From an uncultured Chloroflexia bacterium (GTDB taxonomy: Bacteria > Chloroflexota > Limnocylindria > QHBO01), in the NCBI GenBank assembly GCA_963825525.1, contig CAWGTN010000002.1, positions 393,021 to 457,020 of the forward strand: a stretch of 64,000 nt of DNA, given 5' to 3'. Below are positions 7,673 to 64,000 of the stretch, piece by piece. Below the pieces are notes generated by a model. That model was not told the origin of the DNA. It made no database searches and worked only from the letters and a program-made list of their open reading frames with translations. The position numbers and the translations under genes were made by a program. The first letter of the stretch is position 1; every line of letters begins with the position of its first letter.

Positions 7673-7840
7673 GGTCGATCTCCTCTGCGCGTGCGGCGCG
7701 ATGCGATACGTGGTTGCCTGACCACCTTGCAAGGGACGCGCCAGCGCGCACCTCCTCCCATCCCGGCTGAGGGCAAAGGGTCCGTATACTCATGAGGCCC
7801 GCCGCCACCCAGCCCGTCCCGATGTGCCCGCGGAGGCTCC

Positions 7841-10057
7841 GTGCAGTTCACTCCCCCGAGCGTCCCCCGTAAGCCGAGTGCGTGGCTCGCTCTCGGGTGG
7901 CTGGCCGCGATGATCCTGGTCGCCTCGATCGCGCCGGCGCGGGTATCGGCGCACGCCGAGCTCGTGACCTCCGACCCGATCGCGAACAGCTCACTTGTCG
8001 AGGCCCCGTCGACCCTGACGGTGACGTTCAGCGAACGGATCGATCCTGATCGGGCCAGCATCGAGGTACTCGATCTCCAGCTGCGCCCGGTCGCGGGCGT
8101 CGGGCCGGCGCGGGTCGACCCCGAGGGCGTCACCGTCACCTTGGACCTGCCCGTCCTGGATCCGGACGTCTACACCGTCCGCTATGACGTGGTATCGACG
8201 ACCGATGGCCACACGACCAGTGGGTTCTATGCGTTCATCGTCGATCCGACCGGTGCCCAGGCGCCGCCGAGCTCGACGCCCACCGCAACGTCCCCCTCCG
8301 CGGACGCGTTGGCGGTTGCTGCCCGCTGGCTGAGCCTGCTGGGCACGCTGATCGGGCTCGGCACCCTGGTGACCTGGTGGCACTCCGGCCGCCCGCTGGG
8401 CTTCCTGGTGCCCTGGCGCCTCGTGGCCGTGTCATCGTTCGTGGGCGCAGGGGCGCTGGCGGTCTACCTCATGCTCTCCGCCCGCACCATTCCCCCGGGG
8501 CCGGGTGGCCTGCCATTCGACCCTGCGGCCGCGTTCGGGTGGACGCCGTTTGCGGTGGCGATGCGAGTGGCCCTGCTGGGCGGACTGCTGGCCGGGTCGC
8601 TTGCCATCCTCGGAGCGATACGAGGGTCAGCCACCGGTCGGTGGTTGGTCGTCGCCGTGGCGCTTGCGGTCGGCACCTCGCTGGCGGGAATGAGCGCCGG
8701 CGGCCATGGATCGTCCCTCGGTGGACCCGTCAACGGGGCGATCGACTGGCTCCACCTGGTGGCGGCGGCTGCGTGGCTCGGGGGCATCCCGGCGATCTAC
8801 GTCATGGGGCGAAGAACCGCGACGCGGGACGTGCTGCGCCGGCATGGCAGGCTGGCCCTGGTTGCGGCCCCACTCGTCATCCTGACCGGGGTCGCCAACT
8901 CCCCCCTGGTCCTGGGCTCGGCGCGCGGCCTGGTGGCCAGCGAGTACGGCAACCTGCTGCTCGCCAAGGCCACGTTGGCCAGCATCGCGCTCGCAATCGG
9001 CGCTGTGAACCACTTCCTCCTCCGCGGTCGCGGGCGCGGGAGCGCGTCCCTCCTGGTCGCCGCCGAGCTCTCGGTGGCGGTGGTGGCCGTGCTGGCTGCC
9101 GCCACGATGGTGACGGTCCAGCCAGCTGCGGCCCGCCAGGACGTTGTGATCGGGCCGGCCATTCAGCCCGCGCACTTCTTCGGTGAGGCCGGTCCCACGT
9201 CGATCCATGCCTCGGTCAGCATCCCAGCCCCGGGCCGCCAGACGTACCAGGTCACCCTTCGCGACGCCGATACGGGAGCGCCCCGCGACGACATCCAGAA
9301 GGTCTTCCTCGAGTTCACGCCAGTGGAGACCATCGGGCTTGGCACCGAACGCATCGAGCTGGAGCCGAACACGCTCGAGGGTCTGTACTCGACGGCCGCG
9401 GCGGCCACCCCGGTCATCGGCGAGTGGCAGATGCGCGTTGTCGTCCGGCGCGCCGGTGCGCTCGACGAGTCCGTCGAGTTCGGGATGGCGGTACAGGAGC
9501 CCGGCCCCGCCCTGCGTGCCCCGCCGCCGGATACCGGCATCGGCGTCCCGTCACCGATGGCGGCGCTGTGGACGGCGCTGCCCTCGGGGTTGTCGGGCTG
9601 GATCCCGGCCTTCGCGTTGCTCGGGTTAGGCATATGGCTCGGCCGCGTTCATGCGGGACTCGCTCGCCTGCGCATCCCGGTCCTGGCGCTGGCCGTGATC
9701 CTGTTCCTCGGCGTCGGATCTCGTTCCCTGGTGGAGGGTGCGAATCGGCCGACGGTGTCGGACCTGGCGCCATACGCAAGTGCCGCCGCCGGGGATCCCG
9801 AGATCGGCGAGCGCATCTACCGGGCGAACTGCGCGGCGTGCCACGGGACCGATGGCACCGGCGACGGTCCGGTGCAGACGGCCGTGACACCGAGGTCGCT
9901 TGCCGATCGGGTCCCCGCCCTCTCCGACGCCGAGGTGTCGTACCGTATTGCGACGGGCACCGCGGGCACGCCGATGCCGGCCTTTGCCGCCAGCCTGACC
10001 GAACAGGAGCGCGATGACCTCGTGAGCTACCTTCGGGCCAGGTGGGGCACGCCGTGA
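7841..10057 (+). CDS. copper resistance CopC-CopD fusion protein with C-terminal class I cytochrome c domain
   Basis: Signal peptide followed by HAELVTSDP, which is the CopC N-terminal His after cleavage. A polytopic CopD-like region follows. The C-terminus carries CAACHG (CXXCH). Confidence 0.85.
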   Translation: MQFTPPSVPRKPSAWLALGWLAAMILVASIAPARVSAHAELVTSDPIANSSLVEAPSTLTVTFSERIDPDRASIEVLDLQLRPVAGVGPARVDPEGVTVTLDLPVLDPDVYTVRYDVVSTTDGHTTSGFYAFIVDPTGAQAPPSSTPTATSPSADALAVAARWLSLLGTLIGLGTLVTWWHSGRPLGFLVPWRLVAVSSFVGAGALAVYLMLSARTIPPGPGGLPFDPAAAFGWTPFAVAMRVALLGGLLAGSLAILGAIRGSATGRWLVVAVALAVGTSLAGMSAGGHGSSLGGPVNGAIDWLHLVAAAAWLGGIPAIYVMGRRTATRDVLRRHGRLALVAAPLVILTGVANSPLVLGSARGLVASEYGNLLLAKATLASIALAIGAVNHFLLRGRGRGSASLLVAAELSVAVVAVLAAATMVTVQPAAARQDVVIGPAIQPAHFFGEAGPTSIHASVSIPAPGRQTYQVTLRDADTGAPRDDIQKVFLEFTPVETIGLGTERIELEPNTLEGLYSTAAAATPVIGEWQMRVVVRRAGALDESVEFGMAVQEPGPALRAPPPDTGIGVPSPMAALWTALPSGLSGWIPAFALLGLGIWLGRVHAGLARLRIPVLALAVILFLGVGSRSLVEGANRPTVSDLAPYASAAAGDPEIGERIYRANCAACHGTDGTGDGPVQTAVTPRSLADRVPALSDAEVSYRIATGTAGTPMPAFAASLTEQERDDLVSYLRARWGTP

Positions 10058-10084
10058 TCGCGATCCAGACGAGGAGAAGATGAG

Positions 10085-10459
10085 ATGCAGAGACTTGTGC
10101 GCCCGCTGACCGCACTCGCCGCGGGGACGTTGCTCCTCGCCGGCTGCGCGGGGGGCGAATCGGGCTGCACGGACCTCCCGGACCGTGTCGAGATCACCGT
10201 GACCGCCGAGGCATTGGTTCCCGCCCAGCCCGCGGTGTGTGCAGGGCACGAGGTGACGCTGGTCCTGACCGCCGAGGTCGACGGAGTGCTCCACATCCAT
10301 GGCTACGACGAAGAGGCGCCGGCGACCCCGATCGTGGCCGGCGAGGTCAAGGAGCTCACGTTCACGGCGTCCCGCAGCGGTCAGTTTCCGGTGGAGCTCC
10401 ACAGCAATGACGACCCGCAGGGCGTCGATGTAGGGATCTTCACAGTCCATGAGCCCTAG
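10085..10459 (+). CDS. lipoprotein, putative cupredoxin-like metal-binding domain
   Basis: Lipobox LLAGC; HIHGY...ELHS motifs; overlaps the next gene by 11 nt. Confidence 0.65.
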   Translation: MQRLVRPLTALAAGTLLLAGCAGGESGCTDLPDRVEITVTAEALVPAQPAVCAGHEVTLVLTAEVDGVLHIHGYDEEAPATPIVAGEVKELTFTASRSGQFPVELHSNDDPQGVDVGIFTVHEP

Positions 10460-11978
10460 CCGACGGACTGCCGCGGTCGCCGCGGCCCTGGTCTTGCTGC
10501 TCATGCTCATCCCGGGTCGCGTGGCAGCGCACGCCGTCGGCGGGACGTTCGAGCTGCCGGTGCCGCTGTGGCTCTATCTGGCCGGTGCCGGCGCCGCCGT
10601 GGCTGCGTCGTTCGTCGTGCTGGCCGTGGCGTCGCGCGGGGCACCCAGGGCAGCGCCCATCATCCCGATTCCTGCGTCACTGGAGCACGTCGCCCGGCCC
10701 GTGCTCCGTGCCCTCGGGATGGTGTGGTGGTACGGCGCCATCGTGGTTGGGTTCGTGATCGGCGACATCTCGCCGCTGCCGGCCGTGCTGCTGTGGATCG
10801 GCATCTGGGTCGGTCTGCCCATCGTCTCGGTGCTGATCGGCAATCCATGGCCGTCGCTCAGCCCATTCCGCACGACCTTCGCGGGTCTCGAGTGGCTGGC
10901 GCGGCGTGCCGGCGCGGGTCGGCTGGACCTGGGCCTCACCTACCCTCCGGGCCTGGCGCGCTGGCCGGCATTCGCTCTTCTGGCGATTGCCATCTGGGTC
11001 GAGCTCGTGCTGCCGGGCGGCGAGGTGGCGGGCACCGTGGCGGTCCTCATGCTGTCGTACACGGTGATCACCTTGGCCGGGATGCTGTCCGTTGGACCCG
11101 CCGCATGGCTCCGTCACGCCGAACTGTTCGAGGTCCTGCTCGGTTGGTTCGGCAGGATCGGGCCGATCGGTCGCATCTCGACCGATCCCGCCCTGTGCGC
11201 CGGCTGCGGCGATGAATGCGATCCGTCCCGATGCGTTGATTGCCCCGAGTGCTCCACCACGGCCGATGATGGCGAACGCCATGCGGTGCTGCGGCCCTGG
11301 GCCGCCGGGCTGATGGACGCGGGCCGGTCCGGTCCGTCCGACGCGGCATTCATCATCCTGGCGCTGGCCGGCGTCACCTACGACGGACTGCAAGAGACCT
11401 CGATCGGTGGATGGCTGTTCGACCTCGTCTACGGTCCACTCGCCTCGCTGCTGGGTCCCACGGACGCCCGGACGTTCCTCCTCGCCGAGACGGCGCAGTT
11501 CGCGCTGGTCTTCGTCTCATTCATGGCGGCCTTCGTGCTGGTGATCGCGTCGGCCCGGCTCATCGGCGCATCTCAGCACCGGCGACCCCTCGGGTCGGAC
11601 CTCGGCCGCTACGCGATCACCCTGCTCCCGATCGCGGGCGGATACCTCATCGCGCACTACTTCACGCTGGTCATCCAGGGCATCGTCTGGCTGCCGTCGC
11701 TGATCGTCGATCCGTTGATGAGCCTGGCCCCCCAGCTCGACGCCATCCCGATTGCTCTCGTCTGGTACACGAGCGTCGGGGCGATCGTGGTCGGGCACGT
11801 CATCGGGATCGTGCTGGCGCATCGGCTTGCGAAGGCGGATGACCCGAGCCGCTCGACCATCGCCGGCCTACCCCTGGTCGGGTTGATGATCGGATACACG
11901 GTCCTGTCACTCTGGATCATCGCCGCGCCGCTGGTCGTCGAGCCCGGTATTCCGCCGGCCGCGCTGCTCCTTCCATGA
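10449..11978 (+). CDS. polytopic membrane protein of unknown function with a six-Cys loop and His immediately after the predicted signal-peptide cleavage site
   Basis: 509 aa with about 10 TM segments. Predicted signal-peptide cleavage at VAA/HAVGG. Cys cluster CAGCGDECDPSRCVDCPEC at 11195-11252. The stop overlaps the ccdA start (ATGA). Confidence 0.7.
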   Translation: MSPSRRTAAVAAALVLLLMLIPGRVAAHAVGGTFELPVPLWLYLAGAGAAVAASFVVLAVASRGAPRAAPIIPIPASLEHVARPVLRALGMVWWYGAIVVGFVIGDISPLPAVLLWIGIWVGLPIVSVLIGNPWPSLSPFRTTFAGLEWLARRAGAGRLDLGLTYPPGLARWPAFALLAIAIWVELVLPGGEVAGTVAVLMLSYTVITLAGMLSVGPAAWLRHAELFEVLLGWFGRIGPIGRISTDPALCAGCGDECDPSRCVDCPECSTTADDGERHAVLRPWAAGLMDAGRSGPSDAAFIILALAGVTYDGLQETSIGGWLFDLVYGPLASLLGPTDARTFLLAETAQFALVFVSFMAAFVLVIASARLIGASQHRRPLGSDLGRYAITLLPIAGGYLIAHYFTLVIQGIVWLPSLIVDPLMSLAPQLDAIPIALVWYTSVGAIVVGHVIGIVLAHRLAKADDPSRSTIAGLPLVGLMIGYTVLSLWIIAAPLVVEPGIPPAALLLP

Positions 11979-28288: not shown

Positions 28289-30511
28289 TCAGTCCCCCCC
28301 GGTCTCCGCCGCACCCACCTCGCGCTTCCACGCCCCCGTCGCATCGGCGAGCAGCTCCGCGACATCGCGGACCGCGACATCGGTGCGGTCGAGGTCCGTG
28401 GTGCCATCTCGCAGCATGATCAGGCAGAAGGGACACGCGGTCGCGATCTCGTCCGGTGTCTTCTCGAGCGCCTGCTCCACGCGCTTGTGGTTGATGCGCG
28501 TGCCCTCGCGCTCCTCCATCCACATCCTCGCGCCGCCGGCGCCGCAGCACATCCCCTTGCGGTGGTGAAGGTCCATCTCGACCACGCTCTGGCCCGGCAC
28601 GGAATCCACCACGCGACGGCCCTCGTCGTAGACCTCGTTGTAGCGTCCCAGGTAGCACGCGTCGTGATACGCGATCACGGCGTCATGGTGCTCCTCGGGC
28701 ACCAGCCGGCCATCAGCGACCAGCCGATCGAGCAGCTGGGTGTGGTGGATGACCTGGATCCCGGTGAGGCCGAACTGCGGGTACTCGTTCTTGATGGTGT
28801 TGAAGCAGTGCGGGCAGGTGGCCACGATGGTCGAGATGCCGTGCTCGGCGTGCGCGGCAGACAGGGTCGCGACGTTCTCCTCGGCGAGCATCTGGTAGAG
28901 GTACTCGTTGCCGGCCCGCCGCGCCGGATCGCCCGTGCAGGTCTCCTGGGCGCCGAGCACCGCGAACGGTATCTCGGCCTGGTTCAGGAGCTGCGCCATG
29001 GCACGCACCACCTTCCGATTGCGATCGTCGAATGCGCCGGCGCACCCGACCCAGAACAGGATGCGCCCGCCGAGCACGTCGCCCGTGGGATCGGACTCGT
29101 GAATCGTCCTCCATGGCGTGGTGCCGTCCGTGCTGCGCCGGGGCGGATCGGCATCGGCCAACAGGGGAACGTCCAGGCCCTTTGCCCAGTCCATGCGCGA
29201 TGATTTCGGCTGGCCCCAGGGGTTGCCGGCGTTCTCCATGTTGCGAAATGCCGCATTGAGCTCCTTGGGGAATCGGCTCTCCTCGAGCACCGCGTTTCGG
29301 CGAATCTCGACGATCGTGTCAACGTGCTCGATGAGCACCGGGCAGCCCTCGACACACCAGCCGCAGGTCGTGCACTGCCAGACCGCCTCCTCCGGGATCA
29401 CGTTGTCCATGAGGGGCAGGGTGAGCGCCTCCTCCGCGCGGCCCCGGGCCAGCGACAGCGCATCCTCCGAGGCCGATGCACCACCGTTGGCTCCCCCCTT
29501 CCACGCACGCTGGGCCGATGCGGCCGCTGCCAGCGCCGTCTCGGCCGATGCGATCTGATCGCGCAGTCCTTCCATGAGGTGCTTGGGCGAGAGCGTCTTG
29601 CCCGTCATCGAGGCCGGACAGAACTCCATGCAGCGTCCGCACTCCGTGCACGCCAGGCCGTCGGAGAGGTGACGCCAGGTCAGGTCCTGCAGGCCCTTGG
29701 CACCGAAGACGGGAAGCTCCTCGCCTTCCTCGGGCTCCGCCTCGAGGTCCATCTTGCGGAGCGCGCCACGCGGCTCGAGGTTGCGGAAATAGACGTTGGG
29801 CTCGCTGCTGATGATGTGGAGGTGCTTGCTGTACGGCAGGTAGGCCCCGAATCCAAGGACCAGGATGATGTGCGACCACGCCATGACCCCGAAGCCGATG
29901 GTGGCGGCTTCCCGGCCGATCGGCTCGAGTGCCAGGCTCAGCGGGCCGGCCAGGGGCGCCCAGGCACGAGCCGGGTCCTCTGGCTCCAGCACGAATCCGA
30001 ACGCGTCCCCCAGCCACTCGGTGAGCACGATGCTGAAGATGAGGCCCAGGATGATGAAGGCGTCACGCGTGAGGGCCAGCCGCGCCGGACGAATCACGGT
30101 GCGACGAATGACGAAGTACGCGACCGAGGCCAGTACCAACCCGACGAAGACGTTGGCGAACAGGACGATCACGCTCCAGAAGAAGCCGCCCAGCGGCCAT
30201 CCGACGACGGTCTCCACCAGCCCGTTGGTCAGGTAGTTGCCGGTCGTGGCGAGGAGCACGATGAACCCCCAAAACACGAAGGCGTGCGTCAGCCCTGGAC
30301 CGGGGTCCTGGAGCAGCCGGCGCTGACCGAACACGAACACGCCGAGGGCCTTGATCCGCTGCGGGACGCGGTCAAAGCGATCGAGCGGCCGCCCGGCGCG
30401 CACCACGGCCAGGTGCCAACGGGCACGGCGCCAGAACAGAATGCCGGCCGCCACGATCGGGATGATGATCAGCGGATACGCCGGAATGGACGCTTCCATG
30501 AGTCGCGCCAT
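28289..30511 (-). CDS. membrane-bound Fe-S oxidoreductase (HdrD/GlpC-like: NarI-like TM domain + 2x[4Fe-4S] ferredoxin motifs + two CCG domains; Rv0338c-type)
   Basis: 740 aa. Six N-terminal TM helices; ferredoxin motifs [12 protein letters not shown] and [12 protein letters not shown]; CCG-type cysteines CPHCFN and CPFCLIM. Confidence 0.85.
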
Positions 30512-30532
30512 GGTAGCGGCGCGGGCAGGTGC

Positions 30533-58432: not shown

Positions 58433-59811
58433 AGGCCGGCACACTCCTGGTTGGCGCGCGCGATGTTGGCGTTGTGCTCGTCGAGGGTCGTCGAGAAATA
58501 GTGCGAACCATCCCGCACCCCGTTCGGGCAACCGGCCACGAAGAACAGATAGCCCTCGTCGAGCGGCGCACTGGCCACCGCGGCGATGGACCCGATGCGC
58601 GGCGCGGCGATCGGCATCGGCGGCAGGCCGGGCCGCGTGTAGGTCTGGAAGCCGAGCAAGGTTTCGTCCAGGGCGACATCGCCACCGCTCACCTGCAGCT
58701 GCGGCCACCAGTTCACGGTGCCCCACTCGTCCACCGGAAGGTTTCCGCCGCCCTCGCCCAGCAACGGATGCCCGACCGGCCGCAGCTCGCCCGTGGTCAG
58801 GCCGTATTGGAGCGTGGGATCGGCATTGAGGAGGCCCACGGTCTGTTGGTTGTCCGGCTGCAGGAAGCGGTTGGTATAGACCGCCGCGATGCGCGGGCGC
58901 TCCTCGTCGATCACGGCCTCGCGCTCGACGATGCTGGCGATGATCACCGCCTCGTCGATCGACAGGCCCTTGGCGGCGATCCCGTCGCGAATCTCCTGGG
59001 TCAGCGCCTTGCCGAACTCGTCGAGGAGGCGCCGCACCACGGCTCGCGGCGTGGAGCTCTCGCCGCTGATCTGGTATTCGAGCGTCTCGGGCAGGATGTA
59101 TCCCTCGAGTGATCGACCTGCCGGCAGATCGGCCAGGAAGTCGAACTCGTTGAGGAGTTCGGCCGGCGGCGCCTGCAGCAGCGAGGCGAACTCCTCCATG
59201 TTCATGGTCATCTTGCTCTCGGCGAAGGCCGCCACCACCTCCTCGATACGGAGGCCCTCGCGCAGGGTGACGCTGGTCACCTCGCCGAACGGCTGACCCT
59301 GGAGCGCGGCGACGATCTCCGATGGGCGCAGGGTGGGTGACAGGTCGAACACGCCTGCCGCAAGCGTTCCCTCTCTCCCGGAAGAGATGACGGCGTACTG
59401 GAAGGCGATCTGGTTGCGGACCAGGCCCTGTTCGAGGAGCAGCTGGCCGATCGAGGTGTCGGTGGCCCCCTGCTCGACAGTGACCGTCACGCGACGCTGT
59501 TCGGCGCTGGCTGGCTCATCGGCCAGGACGTCGGGCTGGTACCAGCGCACGAAGTCCTCGACGAGGCCGTGCTCGATCGCCCCGGGGTTGTCCTCGACCC
59601 AGGCCATGACCCGCGGTGCGAAGAACGTGGTGAAGCCGAAGAAGATGAGAAAGCCGAGCAGCGCGATGGATCCGGCGATCCAGACGACCAGGAGCAGAGG
59701 CTCGATGCGGCGTCGCCGGCGAACGGGGCCCTCGCGCTGTTCGCGCAGGCGCCGGATGCGTGCGTTGCGTCGCTCCTCGTACTCCCCCATGGGCGCCGGG
59801 CGTCGGCTCAT
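58429..59811 (-). CDS. mltG: endolytic murein transglycosylase MltG (YceG-like)
   Basis: N-terminal TM anchor followed by a YceG-type C-terminal domain. Confidence 0.85.
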   Translation of the reverse strand: MSRRPAPMGEYEERRNARIRRLREQREGPVRRRRRIEPLLLVVWIAGSIALLGFLIFFGFTTFFAPRVMAWVEDNPGAIEHGLVEDFVRWYQPDVLADEPASAEQRRVTVTVEQGATDTSIGQLLLEQGLVRNQIAFQYAVISSGREGTLAAGVFDLSPTLRPSEIVAALQGQPFGEVTSVTLREGLRIEEVVAAFAESKMTMNMEEFASLLQAPPAELLNEFDFLADLPAGRSLEGYILPETLEYQISGESSTPRAVVRRLLDEFGKALTQEIRDGIAAKGLSIDEAVIIASIVEREAVIDEERPRIAAVYTNRFLQPDNQQTVGLLNADPTLQYGLTTGELRPVGHPLLGEGGGNLPVDEWGTVNWWPQLQVSGGDVALDETLLGFQTYTRPGLPPMPIAAPRIGSIAAVASAPLDEGYLFFVAGCPNGVRDGSHYFSTTLDEHNANIARANQECAGL

Positions 59812-60233
59812 TCGGTCTCCTCAGGCGGTTGGGCGTCCAGGTATTGTTGCAGGATCACACGGGCCGCTGCCGAGTCGAGCTGCCCGCTGCGACGCGACGG
59901 CCGCGCCCCGGCGTCCGCCAGGCGCTCCCCCGCCTCCCATGAGCTGAGTCGCTCGTCCTGGTAGGCAATTCTCATGCCGAGAGCGGCCAACCGGTCTCCG
60001 AACGAGCGAGCGGCAGCGGCCTGCGAACCCTCGCTGCCGTCCATGTTCAGCGGGAGCCCGATCACGACCATGCTGGCATGCTCGGATGCGGCGAGAGCGC
60101 GGAGTGCGGCGAGGTCGGCATCCAGGTTGCTTCGGATGAGCGCGGGTCGTGCAAACGCCATCCGGGTTTCCGTGTCCCCCGCCGCCACGCCGATGCGACG
60201 ACCTCCGTGATCGAGGCCGATGACGGTTGTCAC
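59808..60233 (-). CDS. ruvX: Holliday junction resolvase-like nuclease RuvX/YqgF
   Basis: GTG at 60233; product begins (M)TTVIGLDHGGRRIGVAAGD. Confidence 0.85.
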   Translation of the reverse strand: MTTVIGLDHGGRRIGVAAGDTETRMAFARPALIRSNLDADLAALRALAASEHASMVVIGLPLNMDGSEGSQAAAARSFGDRLAALGMRIAYQDERLSSWEAGERLADAGARPSRRSGQLDSAAARVILQQYLDAQPPEETE

Positions 60234-61876
60234 GGAGCCGTCGACGGCACTGGTTCGCCCTCGACCGTGACGATGACGCGCCAATCCAGGGCGGGCACGT
60301 CTCCCACCCACCCCGGCCACAGCTCCACGGTCGCGTCGCCGAGCGGCTCCAGCGCGGCCTCCGCCTGTTCGGCCGACAGCCCGCGAACGAGGTCCACGAT
60401 GGCCTGCCGATCCACCGCCTCGACGATGGTCCCCACGACCTCAACCCGGACGACGAGCTCGGAGCCATCACGGTTGGCATCCACGATCTGCACCTGGTGA
60501 CTGCCCGGGACGAGCTCCGTTCCCTCGGGCAGGAGTGACCGGTCGCCGTTCACCCTGGACTCGGCGAGTGCATCGACTTCGCTCCGCTCGACGGTCATCC
60601 GGTCGTACTCGATTGATCCCTGGATCTCGGCGGTCTCCTCGTCGCGCGTCCCGACGAGCCCCTCCAGGCCGTCGACCAGGGGATCGGCAGCCCCCGTGCC
60701 CGATTCGACGACCTGGCCATCGGTGCCCCCGAACCGCTCGCTCAAGGCATCTTCGAGATCGGAGATGAGCTGTCCGCGCGCGGCGTCCACGTCGGCCTGG
60801 AGGATCTCGGTGCCGACGTCGTCGATCCCTCCCGATGTCGGTTCGGGGTTGATGACCAGCCGCTGCGTGTTGTTCGGGAATCCGCGGAGGCGCGCCGCCA
60901 CGTTCTGGCTCAGAACGGTGTCGATTGCCTCCGCCGCCACGTTGCCATCCGGCCCGGCAGCGGCGGCCCGCACGTCGACGGCCTCCTCGCCGGCACGGAT
61001 GGTTCCCTCGGCGGTGAGCGCGCCGGCGGGGACCACGATCTCCGCAACCGTCTCGTATGCCTGCTCTCCGGCCGCCACCAGCGCGCCGGCCCCGACGGAT
61101 ACCGCCACGGTGTTGAAGTTCCGGAACACCACGGTCCCGGTGGCCGGGGCCTGGATGGGATACGTGCCGGACGCCGTGACGGTGGCGGTGGCCTCGACGC
61201 TCCCCTGCAGGCGTCCCGGATCGGCGATGCGCAGCGCGTACGACGCCGGCCCGATCTGCCGGCTGGCTGGGACCAGGCGGATCGATGCAGCGGGGGCCAC
61301 CGCGAGGACGCCGACCGTACCGCCGACCAGGAGCAGCGCGATGAGTGCCACCGGAATGACGACCGCCCGACCTGCGCGTCGTTTCCGGGCCGCACCAGCG
61401 GCGGGCGGTGAGGGGACCCTCGCACGGGGCACCGTGACCTCGCGCGTCTCCTCGGCGTCGGCGAGGAGTGCGGGGCCGGGCATGCCGGCCTGCGGGGCGC
61501 TGACGACGGCGGCCGCCAGCCCGGTCGTCTCCTCGGACATGTCACCGCGAACCACCCGGATGGGGGCGCGTGCGGAGGGGGCCTCGGCGTCAGTCATCGG
61601 CTCGGCCGTCCGCGCATCGGCGATGGTCGCCCACGCGTCCAGACCGGCCTCGGCAGCCAGCGAACGAGTCAGCGGATCCCCCACCACGGACAACCCGCGC
61701 CCGGTGGCATCGGCGACGCGTGCCAGCAGGCGGAGAGCAACGACGCTCGATGTCGCGCGCGAGCGGCCGGGCGCCACGAGCACGATCCGCTCGGCGTCCA
61801 GCGCGCGGATACGACGCACGACGCTCGTCACCTCGTCATCCGACTCGAGGTACAGGAGTGCGACTGCGTCGGTCAC
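60230..61876 (-). CDS. bitopic membrane protein of unknown function (175-aa cytoplasmic N-domain, one TM, ~350-aa extracytoplasmic domain)
   Basis: 548 aa with the TM helix VVIPVALIALLLVGGTVGVLAVAPAA. Overlaps both flanking genes by 4 nt. Confidence 0.6.
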   Translation of the reverse strand: MTDAVALLYLESDDEVTSVVRRIRALDAERIVLVAPGRSRATSSVVALRLLARVADATGRGLSVVGDPLTRSLAAEAGLDAWATIADARTAEPMTDAEAPSARAPIRVVRGDMSEETTGLAAAVVSAPQAGMPGPALLADAEETREVTVPRARVPSPPAAGAARKRRAGRAVVIPVALIALLLVGGTVGVLAVAPAASIRLVPASRQIGPASYALRIADPGRLQGSVEATATVTASGTYPIQAPATGTVVFRNFNTVAVSVGAGALVAAGEQAYETVAEIVVPAGALTAEGTIRAGEEAVDVRAAAAGPDGNVAAEAIDTVLSQNVAARLRGFPNNTQRLVINPEPTSGGIDDVGTEILQADVDAARGQLISDLEDALSERFGGTDGQVVESGTGAADPLVDGLEGLVGTRDEETAEIQGSIEYDRMTVERSEVDALAESRVNGDRSLLPEGTELVPGSHQVQIVDANRDGSELVVRVEVVGTIVEAVDRQAIVDLVRGLSAEQAEAALEPLGDATVELWPGWVGDVPALDWRVIVTVEGEPVPSTAP

Positions 61877-63108
61877 AGCGCCATCTCCCGTACCACGCCA
61901 CGCATCGCGCGGTCGACCGAGGAGGCTCCGGCGTCGAGGATGAGTGCCTGGTGGGCCAGTGCCAGCGGGGTCACGTCCTGCCGGCTGCCGAGGTGCCCGG
62001 TGGCGTCACGCAGTCCGACGACCTCGTCCGGCGACATGGCGCGGACTTTTGGCTGCCGAGCGAACGGCAGGGCGCCCCACCAGCCGTCCTCGTCCAGGAC
62101 GCTCCTGACCTGGGCAAGGTCGGCGCCGCCACCGCACAGCAGGATGCGGCCGGGCAGCAGCTCGCCGGCGGCGAGGTCGCCGATCATGAGCTCGATCCCG
62201 TCACGCCAGATCCGGGCGTCCTCCAGGAGCGCATCGGAGACGTCGGGCCGCGCGGCATCGGCCGACGCGAGCTTGAGCGTCTCGGCCTCGGCGAACGAGA
62301 TCGCGAGTCGTTCCGCCACGCCCTTGGTGAACGCTCGTCCCCCGAGGGCCAACATCTTGGTACCGGCGATGCCTCCACCCCGGACCAGCGCAACGTCGGT
62401 CGTCCCGCCGCCGATATCGATGAACACGGCTCCCGCATCGCCCAGCTCACCCGGGTCCAGGCAGGTCGCGACAGCATACGGCTCGGCGATGACTCCCAGC
62501 AGCTCGAGGTCGAGGGCGGTGGCAACCGATTGCAGCGCCCCCAGGTGGACCATTGGCGCAAAGGCGTTGAACAGGTGCAGCTCGACCTGCGCCCCGGTGA
62601 AGCCGATGGGGTTGCTCACCGGATAGCCATCGATCTCCATCTCGACGATCGCGGCGTGAACGAGGCGCACGTCAAGGCGCTCCATCCCGGACTCCCAGCG
62701 GATGCGCTCCTCGGCCTCACGCAGCGCCGAGGTCTGGGCACGCGCCACGATCCGTTGCAGCTCATCCTCGTCGAGAGGCCTGCGCGGCGCGTCACGGCGC
62801 ATGACGAGCGTGCTGGTGGCCCCCTTGACGAGCTCGCCCGCGATGCCGATGACGGCCGCCGTCGGACGGCGCCCGGCCATGGCGCGTGCCTCGTTCATGG
62901 CCAGACGACAATTCTCGACCACGGCGTCGATGTCGCTCACCGTGCCCGATTGCATGTGCGCCAGGCCCTGCCGCTGACGGCCGCTGCCCAGCACGACGCC
63001 GGAGAGGTGGCCACTCGGATCTCGATCCACTGACAGGACGAGCGCCTTCGCGAACTCGGTGCCGATGTCGAGGGCCGCGATGGCCGGGCTCGCGCCACCG
63101 CGCGCCAT
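61873..63108 (-). CDS. FtsA/PilM-like actin-fold ATPase
   Basis: ATG at 63108. Motifs AIAALDIGTEFAKALVL, ...SGTVSDIDAVVE... and ...FIDIGGGTTDVALV... Confidence 0.7.
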   Translation of the reverse strand: MARGGASPAIAALDIGTEFAKALVLSVDRDPSGHLSGVVLGSGRQRQGLAHMQSGTVSDIDAVVENCRLAMNEARAMAGRRPTAAVIGIAGELVKGATSTLVMRRDAPRRPLDEDELQRIVARAQTSALREAEERIRWESGMERLDVRLVHAAIVEMEIDGYPVSNPIGFTGAQVELHLFNAFAPMVHLGALQSVATALDLELLGVIAEPYAVATCLDPGELGDAGAVFIDIGGGTTDVALVRGGGIAGTKMLALGGRAFTKGVAERLAISFAEAETLKLASADAARPDVSDALLEDARIWRDGIELMIGDLAAGELLPGRILLCGGGADLAQVRSVLDEDGWWGALPFARQPKVRAMSPDEVVGLRDATGHLGSRQDVTPLALAHQALILDAGASSVDRAMRGVVREMAL

Positions 63109-63169
63109 GCCGCGGATTCGATCCGCGACGCGGCCCCAGACCCCCTGCACGACCGTCACCGCCGGCGTG

Positions 63170-64000
63170 TCAGGCCGTCTCGATCCGACGGAGCGCCTCG
63201 AGCGACAGGCGCGCCGCCTCACGCAGGGCATCATCGAGCCGTGCCGTGTCACGCCCGCCGGCCTGGGCCAGCTCGGGCCGGCCGCCGCCACCACCGCCGA
63301 TGAGCGGTGCTGCCTCCCGAATGATCGCGCCGGCATCGAATCCCTCGGCTGCCAGGTCCCGGCTGGCCGCAACGAGCAGCGAGGGCTTGCCGTCCGCGCC
63401 GCCGGCCGCCACCAGGACGAATCGCCCGGTCATGCCGCGAAGGTCGTCGGCGAGCGCGCGGAGCGCGTTCGCATCGGCGTCGGGGAAGGTCTCGACGATC
63501 ACGCGAGCGTCACCGGCCTGCTGGGCGCCATGCAGGGCCGCCGCGGCATCCAGCCGCGACTCGGCCGCCCGGGGGGCCTTCGCGGCGCGCTCCGCCTCGC
63601 GCAACCGGGCCAGGAGCGCCTCGACGCGCTGTGGCACCTGGTCCTCCCGCTCCCCCAGCAGCTGGGCCGTGGCCCGCAGTGCCTCGAGCCGCGACCCGAC
63701 CAGCTCGTCGGCAGCCTCGCCGGTCACTGCCTCGATCCGCCGCAGGCCGGCGCCGATGCTCGACTCGCCGGTGATCACGAACTGGCCGATCTGTCCGGTG
63801 CTCGCCACGTGGGTCCCGCCACACAGCTCCTTGCTGTAGCCGTCGACTGACACCACCCGCACGGACTCGGGAATGTACTTCTCGCCGAAGAACATGTCGG
63901 CACCGAGCTCGCGTGCTGCGTCCATGGCCATCCACTCGGTCAGGACGACCGCATCTCGACGGATTTGCGCATTCACGATGCGTTCGACCTGGCGCAGGCT
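63170..64000 (-). CDS. alaS: alanine--tRNA ligase, C-terminal portion (N-terminus beyond window end)
   Basis: Motif FGEKYIPESVRVVSVDGYSKELCGGTHVASTGQIGQFVITGESSIGAGLRRIEAVTG is the AlaS editing / C-terminal region. The ORF is open to the window edge. Confidence 0.85.
   Translation of the reverse strand, partial: SLRQVERIVNAQIRRDAVVLTEWMAMDAARELGADMFFGEKYIPESVRVVSVDGYSKELCGGTHVASTGQIGQFVITGESSIGAGLRRIEAVTGEAADELVGSRLEALRATAQLLGEREDQVPQRVEALLARLREAERAAKAPRAAESRLDAAAALHGAQQAGDARVIVETFPDADANALRALADDLRGMTGRFVLVAAGGADGKPSLLVAASRDLAAEGFDAGAIIREAAPLIGGGGGGRPELAQAGGRDTARLDDALREAARLSLEALRRIETA

Follow-up and report, generated by a model that had tools for sequence, protein, structure and literature searches.

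A predicted FtsA-like ATPase and a bitopic protein with a baseplate-wedge-like ectodomain, encoded between alaS and ruvX-mltG in the Limnocylindria

Actin-like ATPases paired with bitopic membrane proteins connect cytoplasmic filaments to envelope machines, as in FtsA with FtsN or FtsQ, PilM with PilN, and MreB with RodZ; FtsA binds the tail of FtsN, PilM binds the tail of PilN, and MreB binds RodZ. The window analyzed here, a stretch of 64,000 nt from contig CAWGTN010000002.1 of an uncultured Chloroflexia bacterium of the Limnocylindria lineage, encodes between alaS and ruvX-mltG what would, if our reading is right, be a further and undescribed pair of this type: an FtsA-like actin-fold ATPase followed by a bitopic partner of 548 amino acids (aa). 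The general design of an actin-like ATPase with a bitopic partner is known; what is new is the partner, with a putative new cytoplasmic domain and what appears to be a domesticated surface wedge protein, and the fixed position of the pair in the alaS-ruvX-mltG cluster. A literature search for the ATPase/baseplate-J-partner pair and for the alaS-ruvX-mltG locus found no paper describing them. All coordinates are positions in the window, and minus-strand genes are read 5’ to 3’ on that strand.

A first-pass annotation of the window regarded the two genes as a module inserted into a gene cluster common to most bacteria. The adjacency of alaS, ruvX and mltG is known mainly from Terrabacteria rather than from most bacteria, and comparison with related genomes gives no support for an insertion. 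We mapped the locus by tblastn with the window AlaS C-terminus, ATPase, partner, RuvX, MltG, PepP and Efp in 82 loci, 80 from a genome scan and two from exact-protein look-ups. The ATPase and partner genes are adjacent and co-directional in every one, with alaS upstream and ruvX-mltG-(pepP)-efp downstream wherever the contig is long enough, and a deep subgroup (L077–L082) keeps this order despite identities to the window proteins of 31-33% for the partner, 51-56% for the ATPase and 40-45% for AlaS. Relatives are encoded in 542 species-level genomes identified with a back-translated peptide pattern from the partner N-terminal domain (YL[DE]xDDE[IV]T), nearly all of which are labelled Chloroflexota/Limnocylindria; the named homologues likewise derive from metagenome-assembled genomes (MAGs) labelled Chloroflexota or Candidatus Limnocylindria. 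When 1.84 billion representatives were searched by profile, 366 clusters matched at E≤1e-30, rising to 3,048 at E≤1e-10 and to 6,472 at E≤1e-3. The exact sequence of the window partner has no record in the collection examined, and its nearest relatives there are 94% (P0001) and 99-100% (P0122 and P0121) identical to it. Because the pair is present and adjacent in all 82 related loci it is not sporadic; the absence from all relatives that the first-pass annotation named as a ground for refutation is not observed, and alaS-ATPase-partner-ruvX-mltG is an ancestral operon architecture fixed in the Limnocylindria (Ellin6529) lineage.

This uncultured soil and freshwater group, which is also referred to as RIF-CHLX or ‘Eulabeiota’, is abundant but essentially unstudied. 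The group is monoderm, with genes for peptidoglycan (bioRxiv 10.1101/2021.08.23.457424), and its genomes average 2.39 Mb and 68.9% GC (PMC10608941), with which the ~70% GC of the window is in line. Median identity over the loci is 69% for the ATPase, 72% for the AlaS C-terminus, 63% for RuvX, 60% for MltG and 42% for the partner, and ATPase identity is 80-89% among the best 120 matches; in conservation the ATPase is thus roughly on a par with a tRNA synthetase. Within the partner, conservation is highest in the N-terminal domain (aa 1-92; 0.51, versus 0.25-0.40 elsewhere). Judged from the aligned sequences, the ATPase and the cytoplasmic domain of the partner are under strong purifying selection, and the module is lineage-wide and apparently essential.

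That these are two real genes lying between alaS and ruvX-mltG, as first proposed, is confirmed by their GC content at third codon positions (0.83-0.86, typical of coding sequence here) and by thousands of homologues for each. The start of the ATPase gene is most likely not the ATG at 63108 from which a 411-aa product was originally predicted. Homologues are 425-428 aa long, and conservation extends over the additional residues at their N-termini (consensus MT-V--LWGRV-DRVRSA); since the window also encodes this conserved stretch (MTVVQGVWGRVADRIRG), and reading from the GTG at 63159 gives VTVVQGVWGRVADRIRG, we take that GTG as the probable start and the ATG as internal. The ATPase and partner genes share a 4-nt GTGA (61876..61873), the partner and ruvX share another (60233..60230), and ruvX and mltG overlap by an ATGA (59811..59808). 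The initial proposal of a 4-nt overlap on each side of the pair, ATGA and GTGA, therefore stands for the GTGA junctions at both ends of the partner gene, but the alaS side has a 10-nt spacer and the ATGA belongs to ruvX/mltG. The same pattern recurs in the other loci, with 4-nt overlaps at 49/81 ATPase/partner, 66/77 partner/ruvX and 66/74 ruvX/mltG junctions – counts that are slightly inflated, as the start codon nearest the upstream stop was preferred – and mostly a spacer of ~10 nt between alaS and the ATPase gene. An in-frame NTG fused to the upstream stop by chance is unlikely, and from their junctions the ATPase and partner genes are translationally coupled.

The assignment of the first gene product to the FtsA/PilM type of actin-fold ATPases holds up well. 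The nucleotide motifs are intact (phosphate-1 DIGTE at aa 31, phosphate-2 DIGGGTTD at aa 248, and adenosine LCGGGA at aa 341), the C-terminal FtsA domain PF14450 is the one Pfam match (~5e-14 to 6e-14, above cut-off), and the top NCBIfam match is the FtsA equivalog TIGR01174 (108.5 bits, 3e-31). In a PDB profile search FtsA is also first (7q6f, 3.4e-14; 7q6d, 1.3e-12), aligned over residues 20-300 and running through the region of the FtsA-specific 1C insertion, with MreB, EutJ and PilM following at 1e-5 to 1e-3; the top matches 7q6f and 7q6i are complexes of FtsA with an FtsN peptide. The TIGR01174 match, however, falls far short of the model cut-off of 175.85 bits and spans model positions 2-260 of 371, leaving the C-terminal third unmatched, and four further diverse family members score similarly (97.4-111.8 bits). 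Other families fare much worse, with 26.7-33.1 bits against the PilM model TIGR01175 (cut-off 133), 22.5-27.1 bits against the MreB model TIGR00904 (cut-off 365.75), an EutJ score also far below that of TIGR01174, and a match to PilM PF11104 of at best 4.7e-5 in one member. Public databases describe the homologues as ‘cell division FtsA domain-containing protein’ or ‘rod shape-determining protein’, and the Joint Genome Institute (JGI) annotates them as FtsA.

Structural detail is harder to obtain, as 19 close homologues yielded a poor AlphaFold2 (AF2) model of the ATPase, with a predicted local distance difference test score (pLDDT) of 55. In this low-confidence model residues ~109-197 form a strand-helix-strand-strand arrangement like the SHS2 1C insert of FtsA, and the passage from the third strand to the first long helix leaves no room for a 1B subdomain; the corresponding Pfam family PF02491 (SHS2_FTSA) gives a sub-threshold match (2.4e-4) in one family member only. 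Basic amphipathic stretches are present at both termini. At the N-terminus (hydrophobic moment, muH, 0.77-0.80) the sequence varies and the character is kept (QQLWGRVADRLR, QLLGRVAGRLG, FWRRIWQRD), whereas the C-terminal tail, with SVDRAMRGVVR (muH 0.91 for a 14-mer), is short and invariant and has no variable linker.

With so many FtsA-like features it must be asked whether the ATPase is simply the lineage’s own FtsA orthologue, diverged and moved out of the division and cell wall (dcw) cluster, with the partner as a divisome membrane protein in the role of FtsQ/DivIB or FtsN and the module acting as the core Z-ring tether. We consider this unlikely, although it deserves serious weight. FtsA is by far the best-scoring family (97-112 bits, against ~30 or fewer for PilM and MreB), the structural alignment includes the 1C region, the C-terminal amphipathic 14-mer recalls the FtsA membrane-targeting helix, the JGI annotation agrees, and the high conservation is consistent with an essential function. 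A further likeness to FtsA and its bitopic divisome partners (PDB 7Q6F/7Q6D) is that the gene is encoded together with a bitopic protein bearing a conserved short cytoplasmic motif. Yet all five diverse members are well under the equivalog cut-off with model positions 260-371 unmatched, and alaS and ruvX flank the gene in all 82 loci, in none of which it adjoins ftsZ or dcw genes. The non-dcw context noted at first is also seen in the window itself, which lacks an FtsZ signature and has no dcw gene among its annotated ORFs. Moreover, the C-terminal helix of canonical FtsA follows a flexible linker, in contrast to the short invariant tail found here; FtsA is typically much less conserved and lacks the extra basic amphipathic N-terminal extension, and the partner has neither the POTRA domain of FtsQ nor the SPOR domain of FtsN. 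Because the dcw cluster of other Chloroflexota still ends in canonical ftsA-ftsZ (PMC10608941), a second, canonical ftsA is plausible in the Limnocylindria. On its profile scores and motifs we have placed the ATPase in the FtsA branch of actin-fold ATPases, as a distinct and divergent family of its own rather than as canonical FtsA. Should the lineage lack a canonical FtsA, the pair would redefine Z-ring tethering there; should it have one, the pair would be a second FtsA-type system.

The partner is better served by structure prediction, and its AF2 model (from a 32-sequence alignment) is good, with a mean pLDDT of 81. It has 548 aa, one predicted transmembrane (TM) helix and an external part of ~350 aa, as the first-pass annotation described, although the ‘~175-aa cytoplasmic domain’ given there resolves into a folded domain of 92 aa and a disordered linker of ~80 aa. 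The folded domain is a compact beta-alpha-beta-alpha-beta-alpha-beta-alpha unit with invariant residues Y9, L10, D13, D14, E15, T17, R22, R24, R49, L50, D67 and R71. A fold search finds it weakly STAS-like, but there is no match to known sequence families, STAS and helix-turn-helix families included, and no detectable sequence similarity to the STAS/anti-sigma-factor antagonist domains of SpoIIAA, RsbS/RsbR or SLC26 proteins; the STAS likeness may reflect a generic alpha/beta sandwich only, and the domain is, as far as sequence comparison can tell, a new alpha/beta family. The linker is variable with the exception of a motif, IRVVRG in the window (aa 106-111, nt 61544..61561), which is present as I[HRS]V[VIM]RG (I-H-V-V-R-G) in 62 of 81 loci and invariant in alignment A1, and which is a candidate docking peptide. 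Because a basic stretch, RKRRAGR, immediately precedes the TM helix and few charges follow it, the positive-inside rule predicts an N-in/C-out topology.

Many partners of the deep subgroup (e.g. L079 3094-4854, P0325, P0375 and P0389) have Pro/Ser/Ala-rich low-complexity C-terminal tails of up to ~100 aa, which are lacking in the window partner. These are consistent with an extracellular ectodomain, and may be wall-spanning or glycosylated linkers.

The overall arrangement invites comparison with two other actin-like systems. Like MreB and RodZ, the pair comprises a membrane actin-like protein and a bitopic protein with a folded N-terminal domain of ~90 aa, a linker, a TM helix and a beta-rich external domain, and may share with them a link to wall growth, MltG acting with the elongasome in other bacteria; the ATPase is, however, of the FtsA type (TIGR00904 scores of 22-27 bits against 365.75), and the N-terminal domain is alpha/beta and STAS-like where that of RodZ is helix-turn-helix. 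PilM-PilN and GspL likewise have an FtsA-like ATPase fold and an overlapping gene directly downstream, whose bitopic product should bind the ATPase from the membrane. We weighed whether the pair, like PilM-PilN, could be the alignment subcomplex of a machine for type IV pili, competence or secretion; the arguments are this shared layout and the weak PilM matches (TIGR01175 at 27-33 bits, PF11104 to 4.7e-5 in one member). It is very improbable, as the scores remain far below the PilM cut-off of 133 bits and no pilO/P/Q or pilB/C/T gene is found in any Pfam-annotated or tblastn-mapped neighborhood, where the neighbors are instead alaS, ruvX, mltG, pepP and efp. The partner, moreover, was already noted to be far larger than PilN, and at 548 versus ~200 aa it is ~2.5 times the size, with a folded 92-aa N-terminal domain rather than a short peptide and a wedge-like ectodomain rather than the ferredoxin-like periplasmic domain of PilN. 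The earlier view of it as a protein of FtsQ/PilN style is not sustained, since it resembles neither and appears to combine a wedge-fold ectodomain with a new alpha/beta cytoplasmic domain.

The ectodomain (aa 196-548) is beta-rich and multi-domain in the AF2 model, and its relationships are to the Baseplate J family of phage wedge proteins (P2 gpJ, Mu gp47, T4 gp6, diffocin TRI-2, PF04865, PHROG_6) and to their type VI secretion system (T6SS) relative TssF. Foldseek aligns it with wedge proteins of 346-386 aa over ~340-360 columns, nearly their full length, with E-values of 8e-8 to 2e-5 and a probability of 1.0; the rmsd is high because the inter-domain angles differ. Profile matches at the family level agree with the fold. 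PF04865 matches 17 of 24 family members (best 2.5e-11) and is carried by 120 of 120 deep-subgroup members among the matches listed, and the PHROG_6 profile ‘baseplate wedge subunit’ matches L078 at 1.2e-11 and the window protein at 5e-4, although the latter has no Pfam match at E≤0.1. The most invariant ectodomain residues (A304, G308, N312, V313 and I318) cluster around a GPxGNV signature at aa 308-313 inside the profile-matched stretch, and public annotations of the homologues read ‘hypothetical’ or ‘baseplate J/gp47 family protein’. A PASTA-like C-terminal module (motif G-x-S-x-x-E-A-x-x-x-L) was also considered and dropped, with one of 16 members matching at E 0.09 and no PDB signal.

From the predicted structure and these profiles, the ectodomain is a complete baseplate-wedge (Baseplate J/gp47) fold and a domesticated phage protein. 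It differs from the phage proteins in its TM anchor, its predicted extracytoplasmic position, its fusion with a cytoplasmic domain, its vertical inheritance in a housekeeping operon, and its distance in sequence from any phage protein searched: a single tblastn match at 1e-3, to a Paenibacillus phage baseplate J protein, was obtained among 50,697 phage records, and 2.9 million viral contigs contained no relative and no contig with the N-terminal motif plus a relative. That weak match, with the fold and sequence signal, is what could be cited for the partner being left over from a prophage, tailocin or contractile injection system, with its adjacency to the ATPase gene incidental. This is hardly credible: in 82/82 loci, across deep divergence, the partner gene keeps its place between alaS and ruvX, and its product includes a TM helix and a conserved cytoplasmic domain that are absent from phage proteins. 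Nor were other tail, sheath, tube, baseplate, gp25-like or gpI-like genes, or a partner wedge gene, found in the Pfam-annotated or tblastn-mapped neighborhoods, and the composition of the partner gene matches that of its flanks (GC 0.70-0.74). Vertical conservation and operon fusion thus favor a domesticated wedge protein over a prophage remnant, and together with the negative viral-contig scan they led us to reject a prophage or contractile injection system as the current function of the partner. To our knowledge there is no other case of a baseplate wedge fold reused as a cell-surface module, and we know of few domesticated phage tail parts apart from the T6SS and tailocins.

What the pair does is less secure than its anatomy, and our favored reading, held tentatively and at somewhat less than even confidence, is that it forms a transmembrane scaffold coupling nucleotide-driven assembly in the cytoplasm to the cell wall, and that it likely positions or regulates peptidoglycan growth or septation. 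The module would be specific to the Limnocylindria and expressed within the housekeeping operon with alaS, ruvX and mltG. The ATPase would sit on the inner face of the membrane by means of its basic amphipathic terminal helices, where it may polymerize, and would bind the cytoplasmic part of the partner through either the N-terminal domain or the linker motif. Wedge proteins oligomerize in baseplates, and the wedge-fold ectodomain may similarly self-associate outside the membrane in the wall zone, as in a baseplate ring, so that the two proteins together would link a cytoplasmic assembly to the wall. A role in peptidoglycan growth or septation is favored because translational coupling ties the pair to ruvX and mltG within a housekeeping operon that is constitutive.

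Several points weigh against this proposal. The one argument for the peptidoglycan link is operon membership, and alaS and ruvX in the same operon are non-wall genes; the envelope or division role suggested in the first-pass annotation likewise draws on operon context and analogy. Oligomerization of the ectodomain is argued from baseplates, and we infer the binding, the location and the physiological role of the pair by analogy. Because the AF2 model of the ATPase is poor, the support for its putative 1C domain and amphipathic helices comes from the profile alignment, the weak SHS2_FTSA match and the sequence pattern. It could be, then, that the module belongs with the non-wall genes of the operon and serves some housekeeping role, such as quality control at the membrane, a response to stress sensed by the STAS-like domain, or positioning related to the chromosome or ribosomes, with MltG an irrelevant neighbor. 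The mixed housekeeping content of the operon (alaS, ruvX, pepP and efp, with xseAB downstream) and the use of STAS-like folds elsewhere as signaling or partner-switching modules would fit, and gene neighborhood alone does not specify a wall function. We nevertheless think this improbable, as it is difficult to see how a 350-aa extracytoplasmic structural domain and an FtsA-type ATPase at the membrane would serve translation or RNA processing; ruvX and mltG are also widely found paired, and no envelope gene other than mltG is translationally chained to the pair. A bolder version of the scaffold proposal, and a rather unlikely one, is that a phage wedge protein was domesticated as the outward half of a new envelope-spanning cytoskeletal machine, its ectodomain forming a ring or lattice in the wall zone that is coupled, mechanically or allosterically, through the TM helix and the novel cytoplasmic domain to filaments of the unusually conserved ATPase, and which organizes wall growth or septation instead of, or beside, canonical FtsA or MreB.

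The coordinates of the pair and of the adjoining genes are given in Table 1.

Table 1. Genes and protein segments of the alaS-mltG region, in window coordinates.
Feature	Coordinates	Strand	Basis
alaS (alanyl-tRNA synthetase), 3’ part	63170..64000	-	Pfam tRNA_SAD 2.8e-18, DHHA1 1.3e-16
FtsA-like actin-fold ATPase, 428 aa from probable start GTG 63159	61873..63159	-	PF14450, TIGR01174, PDB profile search
Partner, 548 aa, predicted bitopic	60230..61876	-	starts with GTG within the GTGA ending the ATPase gene; stop TGA 60232..60230
Partner, predicted N-terminal cytoplasmic alpha/beta domain, aa 1-92	61601..61876	-	AF2 model, conservation
Partner, predicted disordered cytoplasmic linker, aa 93-171	61364..61600	-	pLDDT <50 over aa 95-173
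Partner, predicted single TM helix, ~aa 172-196	61289..61363	-	hydrophobic run AVVIPVALIALLLVGGTVGVLAVAPAA; AF2 helix aa 175-192
Partner, predicted extracytoplasmic domain, Baseplate J/gp47 wedge fold, aa 197-548	60230..61288	-	fold and profile matches
ruvX (yqgF), 141 aa from GTG 60233	59808..60233	-	Pfam RuvX 6.7e-35; TIGR00250 95.7 bits (cut-off 43.25)
mltG (yceG), endolytic transglycosylase, 460 aa	58429..59811	-	Pfam YceG 5.9e-57; TIGR00247 114.6 bits (cut-off 103.4)

Every gene between 52,000 and 64,000 is encoded on the minus strand, in the order alaS, ATPase, partner, ruvX, mltG, pepP, efp, xseA, xseB, a GNAT gene and dxs. The alaS stop codon is a TGA at 63172..63170, and the other end of this gene runs past the window edge. 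GC content is even along the region (0.68-0.74), and no promoter-like or terminator-like sites were found inside the cluster on the coding strand.

The outer parts of the cluster vary among the relatives. In L033, L035–L037, L039, L040, L047, L048, L051, L054, L061, L062, L066, L071, L074 and L080 pepP is absent and efp directly follows mltG, and pepP is therefore a variable member of an otherwise fixed cluster. Upstream of alaS, both Pfam-annotated relatives have three small genes encoding PLDc_N+SHOCT, DUF948 and YtxH proteins (L001 4857-5979 and L002 4772-5997), and the conserved block may extend further in that direction. A single 512-aa gene call in L002 (15091-16629) contains both Exonuc_VII_L and Exonuc_VII_S, such that xseA and xseB are apparently fused, whereas they are separate in the window and in L001; this may be a real fusion, or read-through resulting from a sequencing error.

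A few of the contigs carry a locus of Limnocylindria type under unrelated labels, namely L014 and L028 (Steroidobacteraceae), L077 (Patescibacteria group), L076 (Dormiibacterota) and P0514 (Clostridia). Their flanking genes are 70-80% identical to those of the window, and L076 and L077 are ~71% GC; the labels are probably binning or taxonomy errors. In the long-read Microflora Danica (‘MFD’) MAGs L044, L046, L052, L057, L067, L070 and L073, several cluster genes are split into tblastn segments in different frames, which look like assembly indel errors and not real pseudogenes.

Two other regions of the window encode proteins of unusual composition. At 7796-10054 on the plus strand is a gene for a 753-aa protein with CopC, CopD and C-terminal cytochrome c domains, a copper-resistance/cytochrome fusion, and the ORFs that follow it (10058-10456 and 10434-11975) encode secreted or membrane proteins, the second of which has no Pfam match. 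At 28292-30532 on the minus strand is a gene for a 747-aa protein with an N-terminal membrane segment, 4Fe-4S dicluster motifs and two CCG cysteine-rich domains, which resembles heterodisulfide reductase or GlpC.

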